Assembly (NCBI GenBank): GCA_913009335.1
Contig: CAJVXN010000006.1
Location: 562-64,561 of the forward strand
Source: an uncultured bacterium
GTDB lineage: Bacteria > Omnitrophota > Gorgyraeia > Ghiorseimicrobiales > Ghiorseimicrobiaceae
DNA length: 64,000 bases
Direction: 5' to 3'
A program made the position numbers and the translations under genes. The notes under the pieces are model-generated. The model was not told where the DNA came from. It did not search any database and saw only the letters and a list, made by a program, of their open reading frames with translations. Shown here piece by piece: positions 3,160-52,043 of this stretch. The number at the start of each line of letters is the position of its first letter. The stretch's first letter is position 1.

Positions 3160-3338
3160 ATGAAAAAGAGATATAATCTTAGCGAAGCGGCAGAAATATT
3201 AGGCTTAACTCGTCAAGGGCTTTATTATTGGATAAAGAAGGGATGGGTAACTCCTAAACGTGATTATAAAGGCCACCCTGTGTTTATGGATGCTGATTTA
3301 AAAAAAATTAAAAAATGGAAAGATAAATTAGAAGAGGT

Positions 3339-3342
<4 letters not shown>
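3160..3342 (+). CDS. Excisionase/Xis-family (AlpA/MerR-like) HTH DNA-binding protein, putative recombination directionality factor
   Basis: 60 aa. LSEAAEILGLTRQGLYYWIKKG fits the excisionase-family HTH consensus. 4-nt ATGA overlap with the next gene. Co-located with a serine recombinase. Confidence 0.55.
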
Positions 3343-9423
<6,081 letters not shown>

Positions 9424-11868: not shown

Positions 11869-12933
11869 TCAGGCAAGTGTTGAAATCATATCAAGAAGTT
11901 GTTTTTTTGTTTTTAGCTCAGAAAGGATGCCGCGGACTTTTCTAGCGTGGGGTATTCCTTTTAGGTATAGCGGCAAAAAAAGACGCATACGTAACACAGC
12001 ACTTTTCTCACCGTATAGTTTTGAGGCTAATCCAAGATGCAGCTTAATAGTTTTGATTCGTTCGGCAATTGTCGATATTCTGCGCAGTTTACCCGTTTTT
12101 AAAAAATATTGACTGTGTTTAAAAATCCAGGGGTTGCCCATGGCCCCGCGTGCTACTAATACAGCATCGCACCCGGTTTGTGTAAGCATTCGCTTTACGT
12201 CTTCCGGTCCGAATACGTCGCCGCTTCCAATAACTGGAATATTAACTTCGTCTTTAACTCTGGCGATTATGTCATAATCTGCTTTTCCGCGGTAGAGTTG
12301 TTCTTTTGTCCGGGCGTGAATGAATACGGCGCTTGCGCCAGCATCTTGGAGTCGCTTTGCAATAGAGACGGCATTAATATTATCCTTGGACCAGCCGCTT
12401 CTTATTTTTACAGTAATTGGAATTGTCGCGTTAGAAGTTAATTTTTTAACAATGCTTGCGAGTAATTTCGGTTCCTTCATCAGTGCTACGCCTTCACCGC
12501 GCCGAGCTACTTTTCTTACCGGGCAGGCTGCGTTAAAGTCCAGGAGTTTGACTTTAGTTTTTTGGATAACATCTTGCGCATTTAGAAGCATATCTATGTC
12601 TCTACCTAAAACCTGTGCCCCTAAAGGACTATCTTTACGGTTTGATGAAAGCATGCTTTTAGTTTTTTTGCTTTTATATTTAATTGATGCGGCATTGAGC
12701 ATTTCGGTAAAGGCAAATTTGCAGCCAAAATCACGGCAAAGCGTACGAAAAGAAAGGTCTGATATTCCGGATAATGGAGCAAGTATGAGCTGAGTATTTA
12801 TTTTTAGATTGCCGATTTTAAACCCCGTTAGAGATAGGTCGTCTTTAGACGACCGTCTATCAGGAATAAGGTTATTAGATAAAGCTTGTTTTTCCATAAA
12901 ATGATTAAATTGGGATAAACGGTATAAGGGCAA
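11869..12933 (-). CDS. dusB: tRNA-dihydrouridine synthase (DusB-like)
   Basis: LILAPLSGISDLSFR (Dus N-terminal motif) and TIM-barrel FMN-binding motifs. The ORF track uses a TTG start; an ATG at 12894 (MEKQ...) is an alternative. Confidence 0.8.
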   Translation of the reverse strand: MPLYRLSQFNHFMEKQALSNNLIPDRRSSKDDLSLTGFKIGNLKINTQLILAPLSGISDLSFRTLCRDFGCKFAFTEMLNAASIKYKSKKTKSMLSSNRKDSPLGAQVLGRDIDMLLNAQDVIQKTKVKLLDFNAACPVRKVARRGEGVALMKEPKLLASIVKKLTSNATIPITVKIRSGWSKDNINAVSIAKRLQDAGASAVFIHARTKEQLYRGKADYDIIARVKDEVNIPVIGSGDVFGPEDVKRMLTQTGCDAVLVARGAMGNPWIFKHSQYFLKTGKLRRISTIAERIKTIKLHLGLASKLYGEKSAVLRMRLFLPLYLKGIPHARKVRGILSELKTKKQLLDMISTLA

Positions 12934-12946
12934 TCTCTAATGGGGT
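12821..12946. repeat. 126-bp element with 15-bp inverted termini AACCCCGTTAGAGAT (copy A), overlapping dus 5' end
   Basis: Terminus at 12821-12835 followed by hairpin GGTCGTC-TTTA-GACGACC; inverted terminus ATCTCTAATGGGGT at 12933-12946. Confidence 0.7.
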
Positions 12947-13090
12947 AAACATGTTGCTATTTTAAGCTAAAGTCGGGATTTAGGCAATAGAAACCTTAAA
13001 ATTTTTTACCTAGATTTTGTAAAGCAAAATCTACCCGCCTGTGCCGATAGAATTATGCATATAAATCTATTGGTATTGGCCGATTGATTA

Positions 13091-13136
13091 GACCCATCCG
13101 CTAAAGGTATCAGGATGGTCTATCCCTGTGGATTAA
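13091..13136. repeat. REP-like hairpin element (GACCCATCC...GGATGGTC TATCCCTGTGGAT)
   Basis: Same family at 17779-17826, 31578-31612 and 52681-52734. Confidence 0.6.
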
Positions 13137-13317
13137 ATCTGAAAGATTTAATCATGCTATCGGGGTACCTATTCGGTAAAAACACCAATTTTTACTTGCT
13201 TTTTTACTTATAACACGGTAAACTTAAAGCATTGTGAATTCTGCTGTTCTGTCAAGCTATAAAGCATTATAATGCTAGTGAGATAGTGATTTTCAATTAA
13301 CAAGAAATGGAGAGATT

Positions 13318-14400
13318 GTGAAGCATAAGGTTACTTTTATTCCTGGTGATGGCATAGGGCCAGAAGTTGCGAGTGCGGCAAAAGCCTGTATTGAAGCAAC
13401 GGGAGTTGATATTGAATGGGAAGAGGTAATTTGCGGTGAGGCCGCACTTAAAGATTTTTCAACACCCTTGCCTGAAGAAGCGCTCAATTCCATACGAAAG
13501 AACAAGGTGGCGATTAAAGGTCCGATTACAACTCCTGTAGGCAGCGGGTTTCGTTCGGTTAATGTAGGTATACGTCAGGCATTGGATCTTTATGCTTGTC
13601 TTCGGCCGGCAAAGTATTATGAGGGCGTACAAAGCAGGTATAAGGATATTGACCTGGTGGTTGTTCGGGAAAATACAGAAGATTTATATGCCGGTATAGA
13701 ATTTGAAGAAGGAAAGGACCAGACTCTAGGGCTCATTGAAGAAATCAATAAAATGAGTACCCGTAAGATAAAAAAAGATTCAGGTGTTAGCATTAAGCCG
13801 ATATCGCGCTCTGCTTCAGAAAAAATTGTACGCTTCGCGTTTGAGTATGCTTTAAAAAACAATAGGCGTAAGGTTACCTGTGTTCATAAAGCAAATATTA
13901 TGAAGTTTTCCGATGGATTATTTCTTTCTTGCGCGCGCAGCGTAGCGAAAGAGTACGAGGGAAAGATTGAATTTAATGATACGATAGTTGATAATTTATC
14001 TATGCAGTTAGTCAAAGTTCCGCATAATTTTGATGTTTTAGTTCTTCCGAATTTGTATGGCGATATAATTTCTGATCTTTGCGCCGGGTTAGTCGGTGGA
14101 TTAGGTATGGCTCCGGGCGCGAATATCGGCGATGGAATAGCTGTGTTTGAACCCGTTCATGGATCTGCCCCGAAATATAAAGGGAAAAATAAGGTCAATC
14201 CTACCGCTACTATTCTCTCGGGAGTATTGATGCTTAAGTATTTAAAGGAGATTGATGCGGCAGAGCGCTTGAGAATGGCAGTTGCGGAGGTTATAAAAGA
14301 AGGCATTTCTGTGACTTATGATTTTAAAGAAGATAGAGATGATCCTTCTGCTGTAGGCACACGGGAAATGTGTGAAGCCATCATTAAAAAAATGGAATAA
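13318..14400 (+). CDS. icd: Isocitrate dehydrogenase (isocitrate/isopropylmalate dehydrogenase family)
   Basis: TFIPGDGIGPEV; AIKGPITTPVG...RSVNV...LDLYACLRP; NLYGDIISDLCAGLVGGLG. Confidence 0.7.
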   Translation: MKHKVTFIPGDGIGPEVASAAKACIEATGVDIEWEEVICGEAALKDFSTPLPEEALNSIRKNKVAIKGPITTPVGSGFRSVNVGIRQALDLYACLRPAKYYEGVQSRYKDIDLVVVRENTEDLYAGIEFEEGKDQTLGLIEEINKMSTRKIKKDSGVSIKPISRSASEKIVRFAFEYALKNNRRKVTCVHKANIMKFSDGLFLSCARSVAKEYEGKIEFNDTIVDNLSMQLVKVPHNFDVLVLPNLYGDIISDLCAGLVGGLGMAPGANIGDGIAVFEPVHGSAPKYKGKNKVNPTATILSGVLMLKYLKEIDAAERLRMAVAEVIKEGISVTYDFKEDRDDPSAVGTREMCEAIIKKME

Positions 14401-14404
14401 GATT

Positions 14405-14555
14405 TACCCCGATAGTAAAACACTGTCCCTGAGAAATTCACCCTCTGGAATTTCAGAGAAATTCCGAGGACTTAGTCCCGGGAATCCGAAGGATTCCACG
14501 GGGAAAGAATTTCCAGGACTAAAATCCCTGAAATCGCAACGCGATTTCTAGGGGG
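14405..14555. repeat. Intergenic repeat block built from GAAATTC/GGAATTTC modules (related to 29826-29895 and 33040-33165)
   Basis: Shared segments GTCCCGGGAATCC and CGGGGAAAGAATTTC. Confidence 0.5.
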
Positions 14556-14650
14556 AAAATTTATTCCAAATTTTTTTGTAACTATCGGGATCAATTCAGC
14601 CAAATAACTTATACCACCTTACAGGTTCTATAAGTTACGGCTTCATTGAA
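14556..14650 (+). promoter_or_regulatory. Conserved ~95-nt leader (copy 1) upstream of histidine kinase gene
   Basis: ~85% identical to 40329-40423. Nested stems ATAACTTAT/ATAAGTTA with inner stem ACCT/AGGT (copy 2 has AGCC/GGCT). Confidence 0.5.
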
Positions 14651-16660
14651 ATGAAAGATTTTTTCCAGAATAATCTAGATATCGTATTTTTCATCTATGG
14701 GTTTTCTTTTATTGTTATGGGTCTTGCTATTATCATGCAGACCCGTCGGGGCTCTTCATTTAAAATTGCGGATATTTTATGGTTATTGGGAACATTCGGC
14801 TTGCTTCACGGTGCTAATGAATGGTTGCATATGTGGGTAATCATAAAACGCGCCCAGGAAGTTTTTATTTTATTTGATATATTGCACTGGGCCATACTTA
14901 CGGCATCTTTTTGCTTTTTATTTGAATTCGGCAGGAGATTACTTGCATTGTCGAAAGGCAATAAGAAATATTCAGCGTATTTATCGATTTGGACCTTGGT
15001 TGTTTTAGTATCAATGTCTGTGATACTCGGAATCTTTGGTAGAAATTTTTGGCAGACAAGCAGCATTTGGGTTCGTTACTTGATAGGATTCCCCGGCGGG
15101 GTGCTCGTAGCTTTAGGGTTTGTTAGTTATTTTAATAACGATATAAAACCAACTTTACCGGGGTTAAAGAGAGATTTTTATTCTGCAGCAGTATTTATTT
15201 TTGTCTATAGCTTACTTAGCGGGTTAGTTAGTTCGCCGGCTGCATTTTTCCCCGCCTCTTTGATTAACACAAAAGTATTTATGAAAGTAACTTACGGAAT
15301 ACCCGTTCAGGTGTTCCGTGCATTTTTTGCGGCAGCAGCGACAATATCTATAGGCAGGATTCTTATGATGTTTCGATGGGAAACAATCAAAAATTTATGT
15401 GCCGTCGAAACAGAGAAATTTACCGATAAGATTACTTCTTCCATTGATGAAATGATTATGGTACTCGATAGCGATTTTCGTATAAAGTGGGCTAATAAGA
15501 GATTGAAAGAAGCATATGGCCCTTATGTTAAAGGCAGGCATTGCTATGAGGTTACGCATCATCTGGATAAGCCCTGTCATCTGCCGAATGACGCCTGTCC
15601 GATTGAGGATGTAAGAAGGACCAATAAACCCAAAAGCGTAATACATACACACTTTGATAAAAATAATAAACCGATTTACGCGGAGGTGTATGCTTGTCCG
15701 TTATTAGATGAGGACGGAAAACCAACCGGTGATTTTATACATACAAGCCGTAATGTTACAGATAGAACCAAGGCTCAGAAGGAGCTTGAGGAAGCCTATA
15801 CAGAATTAAAGGCAATCCAGGAGAAATTGTTATCTGCCGAGAAAATGGCTTCTTTGGGTAAACTTTCTGCCGGAATTGCCCACGAGATAAACAACCCCAT
15901 TGGCTATGTCATTAGTAATTTATCAAGCTTGGAAAAATATATTACCAATCTGTTGCCAATGTTTAGTAAGTATTCAGAGTTAGAAGAGGTTATAGCCAAT
16001 AACGCTAAAGCAGAAGCTGAAAAATTACTCATACAGATTAAAAATACTAAAAAAGAAATTGATTTTAACTATTTACTTAAGGATTTACCCGGATTAATTA
16101 AGGAAACTCTTGACGGCGCGGAGCGTGTAGTGCGAATAATCCGCGATTTAAAGAGTTTTGCCCGTAAAGATGAAATCGAGTTAACAGAAATCGATATTAA
16201 TGAGTTAATCGAAAGCGCATTGAATATTGTCTGGAATGAGGTAAAATATAAGACAGATGTGAGTAAAGAGTATGGTGAGCTTCCAAAAATACCTTGTCAT
16301 CCACAGCAGATAACGCAGGCAGTTATGAATATTTTGGTAAATGCGGCCCAGTCAATAGAAGAAAAAGGCACTATCGCTATAAAAACTTATACAGAGAATG
16401 CTAAAGTTTATATAGAAATACAGGATAGCGGAGGCGGCATGAGCGAGGAAACACGGAAAATGATCTTTGAGCCGTTTTTTACAACTAAGCCGGTTGGTGA
16501 GGGAACAGGTTTAGGATTAGCAATTGTTTACGGTATTATCCAGAAACATAAGGGAACTATTGAGGTTAAGAGCACAGAAGGTAAAGGTTCAATTTTTATA
16601 GTCGCTCTACCTATTGCCGCGCCAAAGGGAGTAACAGTTATAAAGGATGCGCAAAAATAG
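14651..16660 (+). CDS. Membrane sensor histidine kinase (multi-TM + Cys-rich PAS-like + HisKA + HATPase_c)
   Basis: TM helices; [21 protein letters not shown]; H-box [16 protein letters not shown]; G-boxes GGGMSEE and [11 protein letters not shown]. Confidence 0.85.
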
Positions 16661-16710
16661 GGAAAACTATATTTTTAACTTAAAAGCGTTATTTATTTAA
16701 GGAGGGGGAA

Positions 16711-17424
16711 ATGGAGAAAAAGTTAAAATTACTTTTAGTTGATGATGAAGAGAATATACTTAGCGCCTTAAATCGTGTATTTAGAGATGATAATGTTTAT
16801 GAAATAATAACTGCTCATAGCGCGCAAGACGCATTACAGAAAGTATCTTCTGTATCTGTAGATGTTGTTATTTCGGATCAAAGGATGCCGGGCATGGGAG
16901 GTGCTGAACTTCTTCAAAAGATACGCGATCTTTACCCTGATTCGATACGTTTTTTATTAAGCGGCTATGCCGATGTGGAAGCAATAATCTCCGCGATTAA
17001 TGAAGGAGATATCTATAGGTTTATAAAAAAGCCCTGGAATAATGAGGATCTTAAAATGCTGGTTAAAAAAGCAATCGGACAGAGAGATATAAGCAGGCTT
17101 ATTAGTGAAGCTATTTTTCGCGCCAAACGTACAATAGACGCAGGTAAGGATCTTGAGGTCGCTACATCTGAAGATAAAAAAAGCCTTATTGTAAAATTAA
17201 AAGATTCATCAAAGGTTATATCTCCTGAAAATATTCTTCGTTTAGTTGATTTTATAATCGGCACCGTTGAATCCGAGGGGAAGATAACGGATGGCCAGTT
17301 TCGCTTTTCAAGCGGTATGATCAATAAGAAAGAGGGGCGTATTGTTTTAAGTATTGATATGGGTAAATCTATAAGCTTAAATATTGAATTACCGCCGACG
17401 GAATCATCCGCGAAGCAAGCCTAA
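16711..17424 (+). CDS. Response regulator (CheY-like receiver + C-terminal domain of unknown function)
   Basis: LLLVDDEENIL...ISDQRMPGMGGAELL...LSGYAD. Confidence 0.8.
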   Translation: MEKKLKLLLVDDEENILSALNRVFRDDNVYEIITAHSAQDALQKVSSVSVDVVISDQRMPGMGGAELLQKIRDLYPDSIRFLLSGYADVEAIISAINEGDIYRFIKKPWNNEDLKMLVKKAIGQRDISRLISEAIFRAKRTIDAGKDLEVATSEDKKSLIVKLKDSSKVISPENILRLVDFIIGTVESEGKITDGQFRFSSGMINKKEGRIVLSIDMGKSISLNIELPPTESSAKQA

Positions 17425-17441
17425 ATTTAACCGAGTAAAAA

Positions 17442-17792
17442 ATGAACCGCGCAAAAGAACGACGTAAATATCGAAGGTTTAGAGTTGCGTTGCCGATTGA
17501 TTGCAGCGGAATACAATTTTTTCAGGCACGGGATTCTCAAAATCTAAGCGAGGGTGGAATATTTATCCAAACAAAGCTAATTGAGAAACTAGGAGTGAAA
17601 GTTGAGATAGTATTTATTTTTAAGGAAGATTGGGAAACAATCAAGGTTTTCGGTGAGGTGGCGTGGACGGGAAAAATTAACGATGAGCAGGATAGCAGGA
17701 TATCTTCTTCCGGTATGGGAATAAGATTTATCGACCCACCTGATGATTTTACTAAAAGAATTAAGCGTTTATATTTAAGACCCCTCCTTTAA
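17442..17792 (+). CDS. PilZ-domain c-di-GMP-binding protein
   Basis: RRKYRRFRV (RxxxR) and NLSEGGIFI (D/NxSxxG). Confidence 0.6.
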   Translation: MNRAKERRKYRRFRVALPIDCSGIQFFQARDSQNLSEGGIFIQTKLIEKLGVKVEIVFIFKEDWETIKVFGEVAWTGKINDEQDSRISSSGMGIRFIDPPDDFTKRIKRLYLRPLL

Positions 17793-17826
17793 GGGCAACA
17801 GGAGGGTCTATCCCTGTGGATAAAAT
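17779..17826. repeat. REP-like hairpin element (GACCCCTCC...GGAGGGTC TATCCCTGTGGAT)
   Basis: Stem shows compensatory change relative to the 13091 copy (CATCC/GGATG versus CCTCC/GGAGG). Confidence 0.6.
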
Positions 17827-17828
17827 GA

Positions 17829-17954
17829 AACCCCGTTAGAGATAGGTCACCGAGGGTGACCGTTTATTAAGCTAAAGCTCGCAGATAAAATTATAGGCTC
17901 TATAATTATGAATTTATCAGATGTAAATACAAGTGATAGTATCTCTAACGGGGT
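17829..17954. repeat. 126-bp element with 15-bp inverted termini (copy B), abutting mdh start
   Basis: AACCCCGTTAGAGAT at 17829-17843 plus hairpin GGTCACC-GAGG-GTGACC; ATCTCTAACGGGGT at 17941-17954 directly followed by GTG-AAA-AAG (MKKIAIIGAG...). Confidence 0.7.
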
Positions 17955-18876
17955 GAAAAAGATTGCGATAATTGGTGCTGGCAATGTTGGCGGCATGACT
18001 GCTGTGCGTATTCTTGATGAAGGAATAGCGCAAGTTGAGCTTGTGGATGTTGCGGAAAATTTAGCGCGTGCTAAAGCTTCTGATTTAGAAGACGCAAGGC
18101 TCGCTTTATTGCGTGATTATTCAATATCTGCCGGGAGTGATTTTTCAAAAATAAAAGGTTCTGAGATCGTCATCGTAACAGCCGGTCTTGCTAGAAGGCC
18201 GGGAATGACGCGCGAAGACCTTTTGAAAAAGAATGCGGAGATTGTTAAAAACGTAGCAGGCTATGTTAAGCAATATGCAAAAGATGCAATTTGTATAATT
18301 GTCAGCAATCCTGTGGATGTGATGACTTATTTGTTTCTTGATAAGCTTTCCGGGGATCGTTTTCGTGTATTTGGTATGGGCATGAATTTAGATGCATCGC
18401 GCTTTGCGAACTTGATAAGCAAGAAGCTTAACGTCAGTGTGCAGCAAGTAAAACCTATCGTAATAGGCGCGCACGGTCAAAATATGATTCCCTTGTCTCG
18501 GTTGACTCTGGTTAACGATACGCCGCTTACATCTCTTATTTCCAAAGAAGAAGTAACCGCGCTTGAGCAGGAGACGATTAACCGCGGTGCTTCTATAGTT
18601 GGGCTGTATGGATCCGGCAGCGCCTATTTTGCGCCTTCAGCCGCCATTCTCGAGATTGTAAAGCTGATTAATAATGATGCGCATGCTCTGCTTGCGGCAT
18701 CGGTAAAGCTTTCGGGTGAATACGATATTTCTGATGTATGCATAGGAGTTTCCGTTCATTTAGGTAAAGGCGGCATTGAGGAAATCGTAAAACTTGATTT
18801 AAATGATGACGAATTATCCGCCTTACAAGATGCAGCTTCAGTAATCAAATCCAATATTAAATCTATTTTTAAATAA
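17908..18876 (+). CDS. mdh: Malate dehydrogenase (LDH/MDH family; Arg at substrate-specificity position)
   Basis: KKIAIIGAGNVGG, IVTAGLARRPGMTREDLL. The likely true start is GTG at 17953; the ORF-track N-terminal extension is encoded by the repeat element. Confidence 0.8.
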   Translation: MNLSDVNTSDSISNGVKKIAIIGAGNVGGMTAVRILDEGIAQVELVDVAENLARAKASDLEDARLALLRDYSISAGSDFSKIKGSEIVIVTAGLARRPGMTREDLLKKNAEIVKNVAGYVKQYAKDAICIIVSNPVDVMTYLFLDKLSGDRFRVFGMGMNLDASRFANLISKKLNVSVQQVKPIVIGAHGQNMIPLSRLTLVNDTPLTSLISKEEVTALEQETINRGASIVGLYGSGSAYFAPSAAILEIVKLINNDAHALLAASVKLSGEYDISDVCIGVSVHLGKGGIEEIVKLDLNDDELSALQDAASVIKSNIKSIFK

Positions 18877-18889
18877 TACGGGGGGAGCA

Positions 18890-20194
18890 ATGTATGATGT
18901 TTGTGTAATTGGTTCTGGGTGGGCAGGAATCAACGCGGCGATAACTGCTGTTAATAATAAATTATCCGTGTGTCTTATTGAGAAAAATACATTAGGAGGA
19001 ACTTGTCTTAACTACGGATGTATTCCAACTAAGAGTCTTGTAGCAAGTGCGGCTCATCTCTATGCGGCAAATCATTCCACTGAATTTGGTATAGACCTAA
19101 AGGAGATAAAATTAAATTTTACTAAGGTCCTTGAGCGTAAAAATAAAGTTGTATCGCGCCTGCATTTGGGATTGGAGGGTTTAATTAAAACAAAAAAGAT
19201 ATATTTAATAAATGGCGAGGCAAAAATTATTAATAAAAATCAAATTTCCGTGGGTAAGGATATAATTGAAGTCAAGAATATCGTTATCGCGACAGGATCT
19301 CGTCCGCGTCAATTAAGCAATTTAAAATTTGACTCAAAGCACATCCTGTCTAGTACTGATATGCTGAATTTAGATAAACTGCCTGAAAATATTTTAGTTA
19401 TTGGTGGTGGTGTAATCGGCTGTGAATTTGCCGGTGTTTTTTCACAAATGGGTTCAAAAGTTACGATTTCTGAAATACTCGAGCGGATTCTTATTACCGA
19501 AGATAGAGAAGCGTCAAAAAAAATGGAAATCGCGTTTAAGAAACAGGGTGTTAAGATTCTTACAAAAACTGATTTTGCAACTCTCAACCTGGATGAATTC
19601 GATAAAGTATTACTGTGTGTGGGCCGCGCAGTAAATAGTGAAAATCTGGGTTTAGAAGCAGCGGGCATTGCAACAGATAAGGGAAAGATCGTTGTAGATA
19701 AAAATCTTATGACTAATATTGATAGCATCTATGCCGCGGGAGATTGTATAGGCGGCTATCAATTAGCGCATGTTGCTGCTTATGAGGGTAAGATTACAGT
19801 TGAAAATATTTTAGGTAAAAATAAAGAGCCTGACTATAGCGCCGTACCAAACTGCATATTTACGCATCCTGAAATCGCCAGCGTCGGATTATCAGAGGCC
19901 GCAGCAGGTGAAAAAGGATATAATACTAAAATTGCAAAATTTAATTTTCTCGCTTTAGGTATGGCGCATGTTAAAGGTGAGCCTGAAGGTTTTGTTAAAC
20001 TCCTCGTAAACTCTGAAAATGAGCAGATTCTCGGTGCTACTATCTTTGGTATTGGCGCTACAGAATTAATCGCGATACTCGCATTGGCGATACGTAATAA
20101 TTTAGATGTCACGGCACTTTCTGAAACTATTTTTCCTCATCCCTCCTTATCTGAATCTATCGCAGAAACGGTACATAATTTTCATGCAAATTAA
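18890..20194 (+). CDS. lpd: Dihydrolipoyl dehydrogenase-like pyridine nucleotide-disulfide oxidoreductase
   Basis: GSGWAG FAD-binding site; redox disulfide GGTCLNYGCIPTK; NAD-binding GGGVIGCEFAG; C-terminal HPSLSE. Confidence 0.7.
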   Translation: MYDVCVIGSGWAGINAAITAVNNKLSVCLIEKNTLGGTCLNYGCIPTKSLVASAAHLYAANHSTEFGIDLKEIKLNFTKVLERKNKVVSRLHLGLEGLIKTKKIYLINGEAKIINKNQISVGKDIIEVKNIVIATGSRPRQLSNLKFDSKHILSSTDMLNLDKLPENILVIGGGVIGCEFAGVFSQMGSKVTISEILERILITEDREASKKMEIAFKKQGVKILTKTDFATLNLDEFDKVLLCVGRAVNSENLGLEAAGIATDKGKIVVDKNLMTNIDSIYAAGDCIGGYQLAHVAAYEGKITVENILGKNKEPDYSAVPNCIFTHPEIASVGLSEAAAGEKGYNTKIAKFNFLALGMAHVKGEPEGFVKLLVNSENEQILGATIFGIGATELIAILALAIRNNLDVTALSETIFPHPSLSESIAETVHNFHAN

Positions 20195-20319
20195 CCCCGT
20201 TAGAGATGGCGGCAAAAATTAATCATAAAAAGCAAATGCCGGTTGAAGAATATCGATTACCTGATGAAGCTTTTTCTCGAACAGACGTCCGCCGTAGGCG
20301 GACTATCTCTAACGGGGTT
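20193..20319. repeat. 127-bp element with 15-bp inverted termini (copy C), between lpd stop and lipB core
   Basis: AACCCCGTTAGAGAT at 20193-20207 (overlaps the lipB ORF ATG); hairpin GTCCGCC-TACG-GCGGAC; ATCTCTAACGGGGTT at 20305-20319. Confidence 0.7.
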
Positions 20320-20988
20320 AAACTATTAGATTTAGGCCTGATTGATTATTTAGATGCCTTAAACAAGCAAAAAGAATTGCTCTGTCGCATAAAATCCGGC
20401 AATGATACGGATACGCTTATTTTATGTGAGCATAATCATGTTTTTACATTAGGCAGGCGCGCAAAAGAAGAAAATATACTTTGTGGTATTGAGGGGGCGC
20501 GTAAAATAGGCGTTGATGTTATTCCTGTTGATAGGGGTGGAGATGTGACTTACCATGGGAAGGGGCAGTTGGTTGCCTACATGATTTTTGATTTACGTAA
20601 AGATAAAAAAGACCTAAGTCTTTTTCTGCGCCGCCTGGAGCGTGTTGTTCTGGGAGTACTTAATGATTATGGAATTAGAGGCAGTTTGATTGAAGGGCGA
20701 AGAGGTGTCTGGGTGAATAAAAAAAAGATCGCCTCTATTGGTATCGGTGTAAGCGGTTGGGTAACATATCACGGTTTAAGCTTTAATATAAATACAGATT
20801 TAAAGTTTTTTTCGATGATTAACCCGTGCGGGTATCGCGACGTGGAAATGGTCTCTTTATCTGAAATTCTTAATGCTTATGTTGATTTAGTAGCTGTAAA
20901 AGCAGCTTTTATTAATAATCTTGCGAAGGTTTTTGAAAGGAATGTAAAAACAGGAGGGATTTATGTCAAAAACGATTTGTTTACCTGA
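20206..20988 (+). CDS. lipB: Octanoyltransferase LipB
   Basis: LCEHNHVFTLGRR, RGGDVTYHGKGQLVAYMIFDL. The N-terminal ~36 aa of the ORF are encoded by repeat element C, so the start is uncertain. Confidence 0.8.
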   Translation: MAAKINHKKQMPVEEYRLPDEAFSRTDVRRRRTISNGVKLLDLGLIDYLDALNKQKELLCRIKSGNDTDTLILCEHNHVFTLGRRAKEENILCGIEGARKIGVDVIPVDRGGDVTYHGKGQLVAYMIFDLRKDKKDLSLFLRRLERVVLGVLNDYGIRGSLIEGRRGVWVNKKKIASIGIGVSGWVTYHGLSFNINTDLKFFSMINPCGYRDVEMVSLSEILNAYVDLVAVKAAFINNLAKVFERNVKTGGIYVKNDLFT

Positions 20989-29700: not shown

Positions 29701-29774
29701 GGGCCCATAGCTCAGTCGGTTAGAGCAGTTGACTCATAATCAATTGGTCCGGGGTTCGAGTCCCTGTGGGCCCA
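29701..29774 (+). tRNA. tRNA-Met (anticodon CAT; elongator type or tRNA-Ile2)
   Basis: Cloverleaf: acceptor GGGCCCA/TGGGCCC, anticodon loop CTCATAA, T-loop TTCGAGT; G1-C72 paired, so not an initiator. Confidence 0.85.
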
Positions 29775-32904: not shown

Positions 32905-32978
32905 GGGCGCATAGCTCAGTTGGTTAGAGCATTTGCATCACACGCAAAGGGTCGAGGGTTCAAGTCCTTCTGCGCCCA
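32905..32978 (+). tRNA. tRNA-Val (anticodon CAC)
   Basis: Acceptor GGGCGCA/TGCGCCC, anticodon stem TTTGC/GCAAA with loop ATCACAC, T-loop TTCAAGT. Confidence 0.85.
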
Positions 32979-34359: not shown

Positions 34360-34716
34360 AGATAAAAGGCAAGATGGCTACTCTTAGCGTAATTACGCTA
34401 AGAGAGGAAAGTCCGGGCTCCGGCAAGGCAACGTATCTCGATAATTTCGAGACATCCGCCTTAGGGTGGATAGGATAAGAGCCACAGAGACGAGTCTCCG
34501 TGTTTTTACGCGGAGGGTGAAACGCGGCAATCTCTACGTGGAGCAAGGTCATAAAGGAGGCGAGTCCGCCACAAACATTGGCGAGACAGGAACCAGCCTG
34601 GTTCGTTTGAGTCTCGGGTCGACTGCTTAAGATCCTGTAGCAATACGGGGTTAAAGATGAATGGTCATCATACCTGCCTGGCGACAGACAGGAACAAAAC
34701 CCGGCTTACCTTAAAT
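34360..34716 (+). ncRNA. rnpB: RNase P RNA (bacterial type A)
   Basis: GAGGAAAGTCCGGGCTCC (P4 5' strand) and ACAGGAACAAAACCCGGCTTAC (P4 3' strand); GGTGAAAC-type loops; 5' and 3' ends can pair (P1). Confidence 0.8.
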
Positions 34717-51750: not shown

Positions 51751-51794
51751 CCTTTTTTGTTTAAGATAATACAATATGGTTATTACAGGTTCTA

Positions 51795-52043
51795 AGAATA
51801 AGATTAAAACGGGAAGCGCCTGAAATTGGCGTACGGTCCCGCCGCTGTAACCGGTAGCGAAAATCTATATAGACGCCACTGCCTGATCAAATCAGGCGGG
51901 AAGGCAAGATGAGTAGAGAGCCGGAAGTCAGAAGACCTGCCTGTAAAATTGCGTAGAGAAGCAAAGATAAATCTACGCCCTCGTGGATAGGGATTAAAAA
52001 AAGCTGGGTGCAATCCCTTTGATGTTTATCAAAGGGATTTTTT
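51795..52043 (+). promoter_or_regulatory. Cobalamin (AdoCbl) riboswitch with terminator expression platform
   Basis: GGGAAGCGCCTGAAATTGGCG...GCTGTAACC...B12-box GCCACTG at 51874-51880. Terminator ATCCCTTTGAT-GTTT-ATCAAAGGGAT plus T7 at 52011-52043, immediately before cobC. Confidence 0.75.

Follow-up and report, generated by a model that had tools for sequence, protein, structure and literature searches.

The 64-kb stretch of DNA analysed here (the window) carries between positions 12371 and 20070 the gene order dusB (on the reverse strand), icd, further genes, mdh, lpdA and lipB, in which dusB, mdh and lipB are identified by their matches to NCBIfam models. This segment is syntenic with locus L091 of Omnitrophica bacterium GWA2_41_15 (window 12371–20070, 65–72% nucleotide identity), and by this synteny the window most likely represents an Omnitrophota genome. 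Three copies of a short repeat occupy the starts of dusB, mdh and lipB, all of them within one 7.5-kb part of the 64 kb. We argue that these repeats are probably transposable elements of the miniature inverted-repeat type (MITEs), internally deleted descendants of a ~280-bp mobile element coding solely for an 86-residue GIY-YIG nuclease.

As read from the sequence, the conserved unit of the three copies runs from CCCC to GGGG over 123 bp and is bounded by the termini CCCCRTTAGAGAT and ATCTCTAAYGGGG, with a GC hairpin beside one of them (Table 1). In copies 1 and 2 the hairpin lies inside the left terminus, while in copy 3 it is found inside the right terminus, so that this copy is inverted. 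The original prediction had placed three repeats of nearly constant length at these sites, and both direct reading and a pattern search recovered them with the same termini and spacing. Its outer bounds (126, 126 and 127 bp) have to be moved, since the AA/TT assigned there to the terminus belongs to the 4-bp duplications described below. Its statement that the interiors are unrelated except for the hairpin is also correct only in part, as the motif CGTCTRT follows the hairpin in all three copies. A check of the spacing had been proposed along with that prediction: the 15-mer terminus with up to three mismatches is enriched in the window (10 matches against 1.4 expected, a number reached by none of 100 shuffles), and the only partners at the fixed spacing are the three pairs.

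A scan of public representative genomes with the pattern CCCCRTTAGAGAT-N(90-104)-ATCTCTAAYGGGG revealed the repeat at no fewer than 112 loci in at least five phyla, including Omnitrophota, Planctomycetota, Elusimicrobiota, Ratteibacteria and many lineages of the candidate phyla radiation (CPR)/Patescibacteria. The 119 copies outside the window are 116–130 bp long, possess terminal inverted repeats (TIRs) of 13–15 bp, CCCCRTTAGAGAT(A), and have no conserved open reading frame (ORF) in any of them. An exact 4-bp duplication surrounds the CCCC...GGGG unit in 53 of these 119 copies, as compared to 0–4 in off-register controls. Most duplications are of the T-N-A-A or T-T-N-A type (TGAA, TAAA, TTTA, TCAA, TTCA). 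The two outermost bases complement each other in roughly 90% of them and those of the central dinucleotide almost never, and neither extended inverted repeats nor duplications were found beyond the 4-nt flank.

The element represents an insertion, because in the syntenic L091 the dus site is unoccupied and TAAA stands there only once: ATGTTTAAAATT, in the wider context GCAATTTTAAACAT. The dus orthologue of L091 reads ATGTTTAAAATTGCT on the gene strand, which encodes MFKIANLK. At mdh, L091 has a separate 142-bp copy located 5 nt upstream at TAAA, and a further copy (L091:579–700) lies at most 1 nt from the window lipB site (20195–20317) in the opposite orientation; these gene starts are therefore hot spots. 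Nested and tandem copies are seen as well. In the tandem arrays at L034:3369–3617, L109:5410–5853 and L095:2690–2960, the neighbours are parted solely by a 4-bp duplication (TGAA, TAAA, TCAA). Shorter derivatives of 41–79 bp (Table 1) retain just CCCCGTTAGA...TCTAACGGGG, some of them with one or two hairpins.

These data bear on the possibility that the repeat is a cis-regulatory device of the host, either a 5'-leader RNA stem hiding or presenting the start codon, or paired operators of a dus, mdh and lipB regulon. Its position at start codons and the stable stem predicted for it would suit such a device, as would the mdh insertion common to two species with a compensatory change in the hairpin. 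However, the duplications and the empty orthologous site mark the copies as insertions, the neighbouring genes are unrelated in many phyla and are approached equally at their 3' ends and in both orientations, the interior is unconserved, and neither an Rfam match nor a promoter-like site is present. A cis-regulatory origin seems to us highly improbable. The regulon operator of the original prediction is unlikely, with copies that stand, with duplications and in both orientations, beside unrelated genes in at least five phyla; the promoter-donating element proposed there is unlikely too, as none of the three copies contains a sigma-70-like site, and such sites are scarcer in the region than in its shuffles. 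A dedicated regulatory RNA is improbable as well: the orientation to the gene is mixed, and Rfam gave no match to the repeat either at gathering thresholds over the whole window or at E ≤ 1 in positions 12700–20450. We also rejected an integron attC site, for the core order here is GTTAGAG ... CTCTAAC, the reverse of RYYYAAC ... GTTRRRY, and the copies are of mixed orientation with housekeeping flanking genes, as opposed to same-orientation arrays near intI.

Opposite orientations at the same or a similar site were seen twice, each time in different genomes or contigs. One case is represented by the lipB-site copies of the window and L091; in the other, L019:2822–2946 and L111:213–331 of the same metagenome-assembled genome have 14–20-nt flanks in common and an inverted interior. 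Such pairs may result either from in-place inversion between the TIRs or from repeated independent insertion. They are what an inverton would produce, that is, a unit whose inverted repeats serve as recombination sites flipping the 96-bp interior. Yet the interior contains no promoter, no invertase is associated with it, the duplications and the dispersed copy number point to transposition, and independent hot-spot insertions, as at mdh, also give opposite orientations. We attach very little probability to the inverton.

To seek a longer partner of the MITEs, unpaired termini of the 112 loci were matched with each other over different spacings, which yielded variants of 41–314 bp only and no transposase-bearing element. 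Two longer copies with the same termini and TAAA duplications (L036:2564–2843, 280 bp, and L109:5540–5853, 314 bp) are filled by an ORF of 84–86 aa with one GIY-YIG domain as its sole content (PF01541, E 1e-16 to 1e-18). The domain spans residues 1–69 of the 86-aa protein, no other domain is present, and the nearest PDB relative is the UPF0213 protein BH0048 (1zg2, E 6e-9). Among the 4587 database homologues of the nuclease, most have exactly 86 aa and are 74–85% identical; their hosts belong to the same phyla as those of the MITEs, with the addition of WOR-3 and Flavobacteriales, and the C-terminus ..GMGKRYLKNRLKRFL(S/L/A/F)LTG was present in 14 of the 14 homologues examined. Differences at the three codon positions of the gene amount to 0.23/0.15/0.51; the nuclease is therefore under purifying selection.

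A metagenome scan with the protein gave 80 loci, and in 75 of them the terminus pair brackets the ORF at a distance of 274–286 bp. In these full-length copies, the left terminus is 3–15 nt from the start codon, and the right terminus is itself coding: it forms the last five codons, (F)LSLTG, and together with the adjacent hairpin arm encodes ..KRFLSLTG. The stop codon is provided by a flanking TGA or TAA in 42 of 62 copies. Variants of the termini alter both ends jointly (TCCC../..GGGA, ..GAGAC/GTCTC.., ..GAGAA/TTCTC.., ..GAGCC/GGCTC..). A search of 2.9 million viral contigs recovered neither short nor full-length copies. The MITE-like character supposed in the original prediction is well backed by these data: the repeats are short (below about 300 bp) and non-coding, have TIRs, target duplications and an empty orthologous site, occur in many copies per genome, and possess a longer coding relative with the same ends.

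More distant GIY-YIG genes (36–56% identical) show the same architecture with other termini. One is located at L093:~4290-4550, with termini CCCGCACCCAGAAAAT and ATTAAA-like flanks, and another at L032:~280-560, with termini TCCCGTTAGAAGCC; from this architecture, the TIR-bounded mini-gene is a representative of a broader superfamily. In L109, one full-length copy has entered a TTTA within a second GIY-YIG element, whose termini are different (TCCCGTTAGACC).

The relation between the short and long forms is seen most clearly in the hairpin. Its covariation, suggested previously for three copies, was confirmed beyond the window on 59 MITEs: 92.4% of cells are paired, while shuffles give 65.1%, the covariation score reaches 0.693 as compared to 0.229 (with none of 500 shuffles attaining it), and compensatory changes occur in six of the seven pairs. 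The hairpin types met among MITEs include GGTCGTC, GGAAGCGC and GTCCGCC. In full-length copies, the hairpin halves are 12-nt arms about 160 nt apart, which encode ..LRKRF.. and ..LKRFL.. and covary via synonymous codons; in 70 such copies, 10–12 of the 12 arm positions are complementary, while shuffled arms give 7–10. MITEs at L048 (E 1e-11), L050, L038, L109, L107 and L090 are colinear with the full-length profile at its positions 1 to ~105 and ~250 to 279. Therefore, the MITEs correspond to full-length copies minus the DNA between the arms.

Folding of the three window copies as single strands predicts paired termini together with the hairpin (z −4.8 to −6.6). The long-range stem of the termini, proposed in the original prediction, is retained as a predicted structure, while its supposed role in host gene control is disfavoured; more plausibly, terminus pairing may serve mobility. 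The mdh insertion is orthologous in two species (window 17831–17953 and L013:4959–5081), with about 70% identity of the interiors and a double compensatory change of the hairpin, GGTTGCC/GGCAACC in L013 versus GGTCACC/GGTGACC in the window. This change suggests that the hairpin structure may be subject to continued selection or homogenisation after insertion.

The landing sites are concentrated at gene boundaries. After computational excision, 57% of copies are located between −30 and +18 nt relative to an ORF start, counting ORFs of 100 codons or more (12% for control TNNA sites), 44% adjoin a stop codon (8% for random TNNA sites of the same loci), and only 31% lie inside a long frame (80% for control TNNA sites). 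The start codon itself (xTG|A..) is the insertion point of 23 copies, 13 among the 116 short ones and 10 among the 60 long ones; in these, the TG-initial duplication and the last base of the element (G, or A in the TCCC../..GGGA subfamily) compose an in-frame GTG or ATG. A full-length copy placed in a start codon ends as ..ACG GGR TGA with an overlapping RTG. A stop codon overlapping RTG is the classic arrangement for translational coupling, and one can suggest from this arrangement that the full-length nuclease ORF is coupled to the host gene.

For the window, these rules explain the starts of the three host genes. In-frame ORFs extend from all three copies into dusB, mdh and lipB, and the NCBIfam models begin at ORF residues 40 (DusB), 17 (Mdh) and 32–37 (LipB), past the N-terminal extensions, which are encoded by the element as previously supposed. 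The supposition that the repeat supplies the start context is likewise upheld, the GTG of mdh being composed of the element's G and the TG of the duplication, an arrangement that recurs in the start-codon copies counted above. The insertions have cut the original ATGs off all three genes, and taking the element out in silico recovers a plausible N-terminus in each. Removal of the element and one TAAA from dusB gives ATG TTT AAA ATC GGC (MFKIGNLK), removal of the element and one duplication from mdh gives ATG AAA AAG ATT (MKKIA), and the start restored in lipB overlaps the lpdA stop. The ORF carrying mdh begins at ATG 17908, so that mdh can be translated either from there or from GTG 17953; dusB, mdh and lipB must now start at a rebuilt GTG or at ATGs inside the element, for which the candidates are 17908, 20206 and ~12890 (− strand).

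Table 1. Positions of the repeats and the affected gene starts in the window, of selected copies at other loci, and of further window features
Feature	Position	Strand	Remark
MITE copy 1	12823..12945	+ (hairpin-first)	After 'ATGTTTA' of dusB, gene on − strand; orthologous site empty in L091
Target-site duplication TAAA, left, copy 1	12819..12822		Single TAAA at this site in L091
Target-site duplication TAAA, right, copy 1	12946..12949
Subterminal hairpin, copy 1	12837..12854	+	GGTCGTC-TTTA-GACGACC
Ancestral dusB ATG	12950..12952	−	Severed from the gene body by copy 1
MITE copy 2	17831..17953	+ (hairpin-first)	Within the mdh start codon (A|TGAA); same insertion in L013
Target-site duplication TGAA, copy 2	left 17826-17829, right 17954-17957		Left one followed by one extra A
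Subterminal hairpin, copy 2	17845..17861	+	GGTCACC-GAG-GGTGACC
Ancestral mdh start ATGAAA	17825..17830	+	Now a 4-codon ORF ending at TAG inside the terminus
New mdh GTG	17953-17955	+	Element's last G and TG of the right TGAA (17954-17957)
MITE copy 3	20195..20317	− (hairpin-first)	In the overlap of lpdA stop and lipB start
Target-site duplication TTAA, left, copy 3	20191..20194		Includes the lpdA stop TAA (20192-20194)
Target-site duplication TTAA, right, copy 3	20318..20321
Subterminal hairpin, copy 3	20287..20303	+	GTCCGCC-GTA-GGCGGAC
Ancestral lipB ATG	20184..20186	+	Element and one TTAA removed: ATG CAA ATT AAA CTA TTA GAT = MQIKLLDLG
Pilin-site copies	L036:1870-1996, 2564-2843, 3311-3438; L051:6606-6733; L053:7505-7629; L059:1031-1156, 2192-2317; L105:3129-3252
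Derivatives of 41-79 bp	L039:3838-3878; L019:2629-2686; L082:4853-4923; L028:1969-2047
RNase P RNA (class A)	34366-34716		Rfam match
Cobalamin riboswitch	51770-51958		Rfam match
Two tRNAs	29701-29774; 32905-32978		Rfam matches, unrelated to the repeats

In eight copies from other loci, the insertion point falls precisely on the G|FT codons where the prepilin cleavage motif of a pilin or pseudopilin gene is encoded. Here, the TTTA duplication falls in GGN-TTT-ACN, and the element end ..ACG GGG joined to TTTAC rebuilds G-F-T. The left junction reads GFTPLEI, and the terminus therefore mimics the N-terminal coding sequence of pilins. The full-length nuclease ORF of L036 continues in frame into the mature pilin (..LSLTG|FTFLEI..). 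An enrichment is seen for flanks that agree with the terminus at 8 or more of 13 positions (15/414 vs 4/1242). An intron-like exact excision that restores interrupted ORFs was considered and rejected: the long "restored" frames are fusions of two adjacent genes.

On this basis, we propose the following scenario. The parent would consist of TIRs of 13–15 bp around one gene, for the 86-residue single-domain GIY-YIG nuclease, with a coding 3' terminus (..KRFLSLTG) and a T(G/A)A stop codon taken from the flanking target. Its two 12-nt arms, separated by about 160 nt, would pair beside the paired termini; loss of the DNA between them would leave a MITE of 116–130 bp, in which the arms become a local covarying hairpin. 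Insertion duplicates 4 bp Y-N-N-R, mostly T-N-A-A, at gene boundaries and often at an A|TGAA start codon, where the last base of the element rebuilds GTG or ATG and thereby keeps the host gene translatable. By analogy with the Ssn nucleases considered below, the nuclease may recognise the folded single strand (paired termini and hairpin) and cut the element boundaries, host repair or ligation may complete transposition, and MITEs may be mobilised by the nuclease in trans. We infer in this way that the GIY-YIG nuclease is the enzyme driving transposition. The strongest form of the claim is that the TIR-bounded GIY-YIG gene of 274–286 bp is an autonomous transposon, whose nuclease recognises the folded ends, excises the element and targets Y-N-N-R sites, the last steps being left to ligation or repair by the host; this we put forward tentatively, as somewhat short of an even chance.

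The main competitor of this scenario is that the MITEs are moved by an unrelated transposase, for example, a DDE enzyme making 4-bp duplications, and that the GIY-YIG gene is a passenger or an addiction module in some copies. TIRs and a duplication of fixed length with a palindromic Y-N-N-R bias are indeed classic DDE signs, and GIY-YIG nucleases are not generally known to catalyse strand transfer. Nevertheless, across 192 loci no longer element with the same termini carries a transposase, the sole coding version being the GIY-YIG form of 274–286 bp; in that form, the ORF takes up the whole element, extends into the terminus and shows purifying selection, and the long-range covariation of arms inside the ORF would be unneeded by a DDE enzyme. 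We consider this alternative unlikely.

Several observations weigh against the derivation from a GIY-YIG element or against its proposed mobility. A tblastn search with the nuclease found no full-length copy in the 64-kb window, and nhmmer with the full-length profile detected there the termini alone, the interiors being too diverged; because they are too diverged to align, the descent of the window copies is argued from the shared termini, the hairpin position and the length. The SRM repeat pattern of the Ssn system, HGTCWYN(0-2)YYVSBRHN(0-5)WNVSBRGN(0-2)RNCYNB, which matches its NTS positive control, was absent on both strands from all 99 MITEs and all 70 full-length copies searched. GIY-YIG enzymes are not known to become covalently joined to DNA during the reaction, and strand transfer would therefore depend on additional factors. 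Finally, about half of all copies have no identical 4-nt flanks.

The non-identical flanks, when read outward, still follow Y-N-N-R. Among long copies, the flank pairs (TTTA,TGAA) and (TTCA,TAAA) occur nine and five times, respectively, and the pair (CTTG,TGAA) of MITEs is often placed between the Shine–Dalgarno sequence and the start codon. As an idea only, chimeric flanks may arise when an excised element with 4-nt donor overhangs is ligated to a staggered target cut, with replication resolving the mismatched centres. The same locus in two metagenomes has CAAA versus TGAA beside the element (L160:657–935 vs L163:686–964). One gene family, with the C-terminal ..FDAIRQLM..KKRIGF.., repeatedly carries full-length copies close to its 3' end (L127, L132, L138, L140, L152, L160, L163); they share the left flank, and on the right the gene is re-entered at varied points, resembling adjacent deletions. 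The copy at L152:1225–1503 has the arrangement TGGA-[element]-CAGG-TGGA.

The repeat disrupts housekeeping genes of Omnitrophota, CPR and allied phyla at their annotated starts, for which gene callers will yield false N-terminal extensions (..LSLTG.., ..ISNG..) or false fusion proteins. Insertions that rebuild ATG or GTG would let a parasite without a promoter of its own gain expression while burdening its host little. If the autonomous scenario is true, the element would be a prokaryotic transposon of a mechanistically new class, with a GIY-YIG nuclease as its driving enzyme, and by far the smallest protein-coding transposable element known, which parasitises host start codons for its expression while rebuilding the host ATG or GTG. 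Mobilisation by the nuclease would imply a new transposition chemistry in a minimal transposon and would offer thousands of natural pairs of protein and DNA site for structure-specific DNA tools. The duplications, the empty site, the nested copies and the deletion derivatives provide evidence, at the level of sequence, for the mobility of small Ssn-like GIY-YIG genes that are flanked by repeats. In the literature, we did not find this family described as a transposon, 13-mer matches being chance primers only, and a search for GIY-YIG in connection with TIRs, target-site duplications, pilin, MITEs or CPR gave the Ssn paper (PMC11893778) as the sole relevant one.

Comparison with known systems places the family between several groups. 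With bacterial MITEs (Correia/CREE of Neisseria, ERIC, RUP, the Rickettsia palindromic elements) it shares a length of 100–150 bp, the non-coding character, TIRs, target duplication, many copies, and insertion at gene boundaries, sometimes read through within ORFs. In contrast to them, the parent is only ~280 bp long and encodes a GIY-YIG protein alone, not being an insertion sequence (IS) of ≥700 bp with a DDE transposase; moreover, the family crosses phyla with near-identical termini, and its subterminal hairpin covaries.

IS200/IS605 and REP/RAYT are similar to our elements in small size, in ends that would here also be recognised as folded single-stranded hairpins, and in abundant short derivatives (REP/BIME in those systems). 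However, they use HUH Y1 transposases and have no TIRs or target duplication; membership in IS200/IS605 was rejected since TIRs and duplications are present here and the protein is GIY-YIG, not an HUH transposase. Free-standing GIY-YIG homing endonuclease genes are likewise selfish genes for a GIY-YIG nuclease, but they have a separate DNA-binding domain and spread by break repair into one allelic site, without TIRs, duplications or MITE derivatives.

The closest known system is Ssn/NTS, as far as the available part of its description allows comparison. The Ssn proteins are single-domain GIY-YIG nucleases of ~94 aa, which cut single-stranded DNA beside an oriented hairpin repeat, NTS/SRM; this repeat flanks the nuclease gene and is scattered at gene boundaries, and its authors remark on an IS-like architecture, raising mobility as a hypothesis only (Chenal et al. 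2025, Nat Commun, PMC11893778). Common to both systems are a single-domain GIY-YIG gene (86 aa here, ~90–100 there) bracketed by inverted-repeat DNA, repeats in many copies at gene boundaries, and an oriented hairpin with conserved flanks. The bracket differs, being here one TIR pair of 13–15 bp with long-range arms inside the ORF and in Ssn local hairpins of 20–50 nt on each side. Our hosts are Omnitrophota, CPR and others, and the best PDB relative is UPF0213 BH0048. Our elements display duplications, nesting, MITEs formed by deletion and an empty site, and none of them was found described for Ssn in the available text (PMC11893778). Because the DNA misses the SRM pattern (0/169), has a TIR bracket with an intragenic helix and displays these insertion traits, we would classify the family, on the basis of its sequences, as a MITE and an Ssn-like repeat/nuclease pair and not as a member of SRM.

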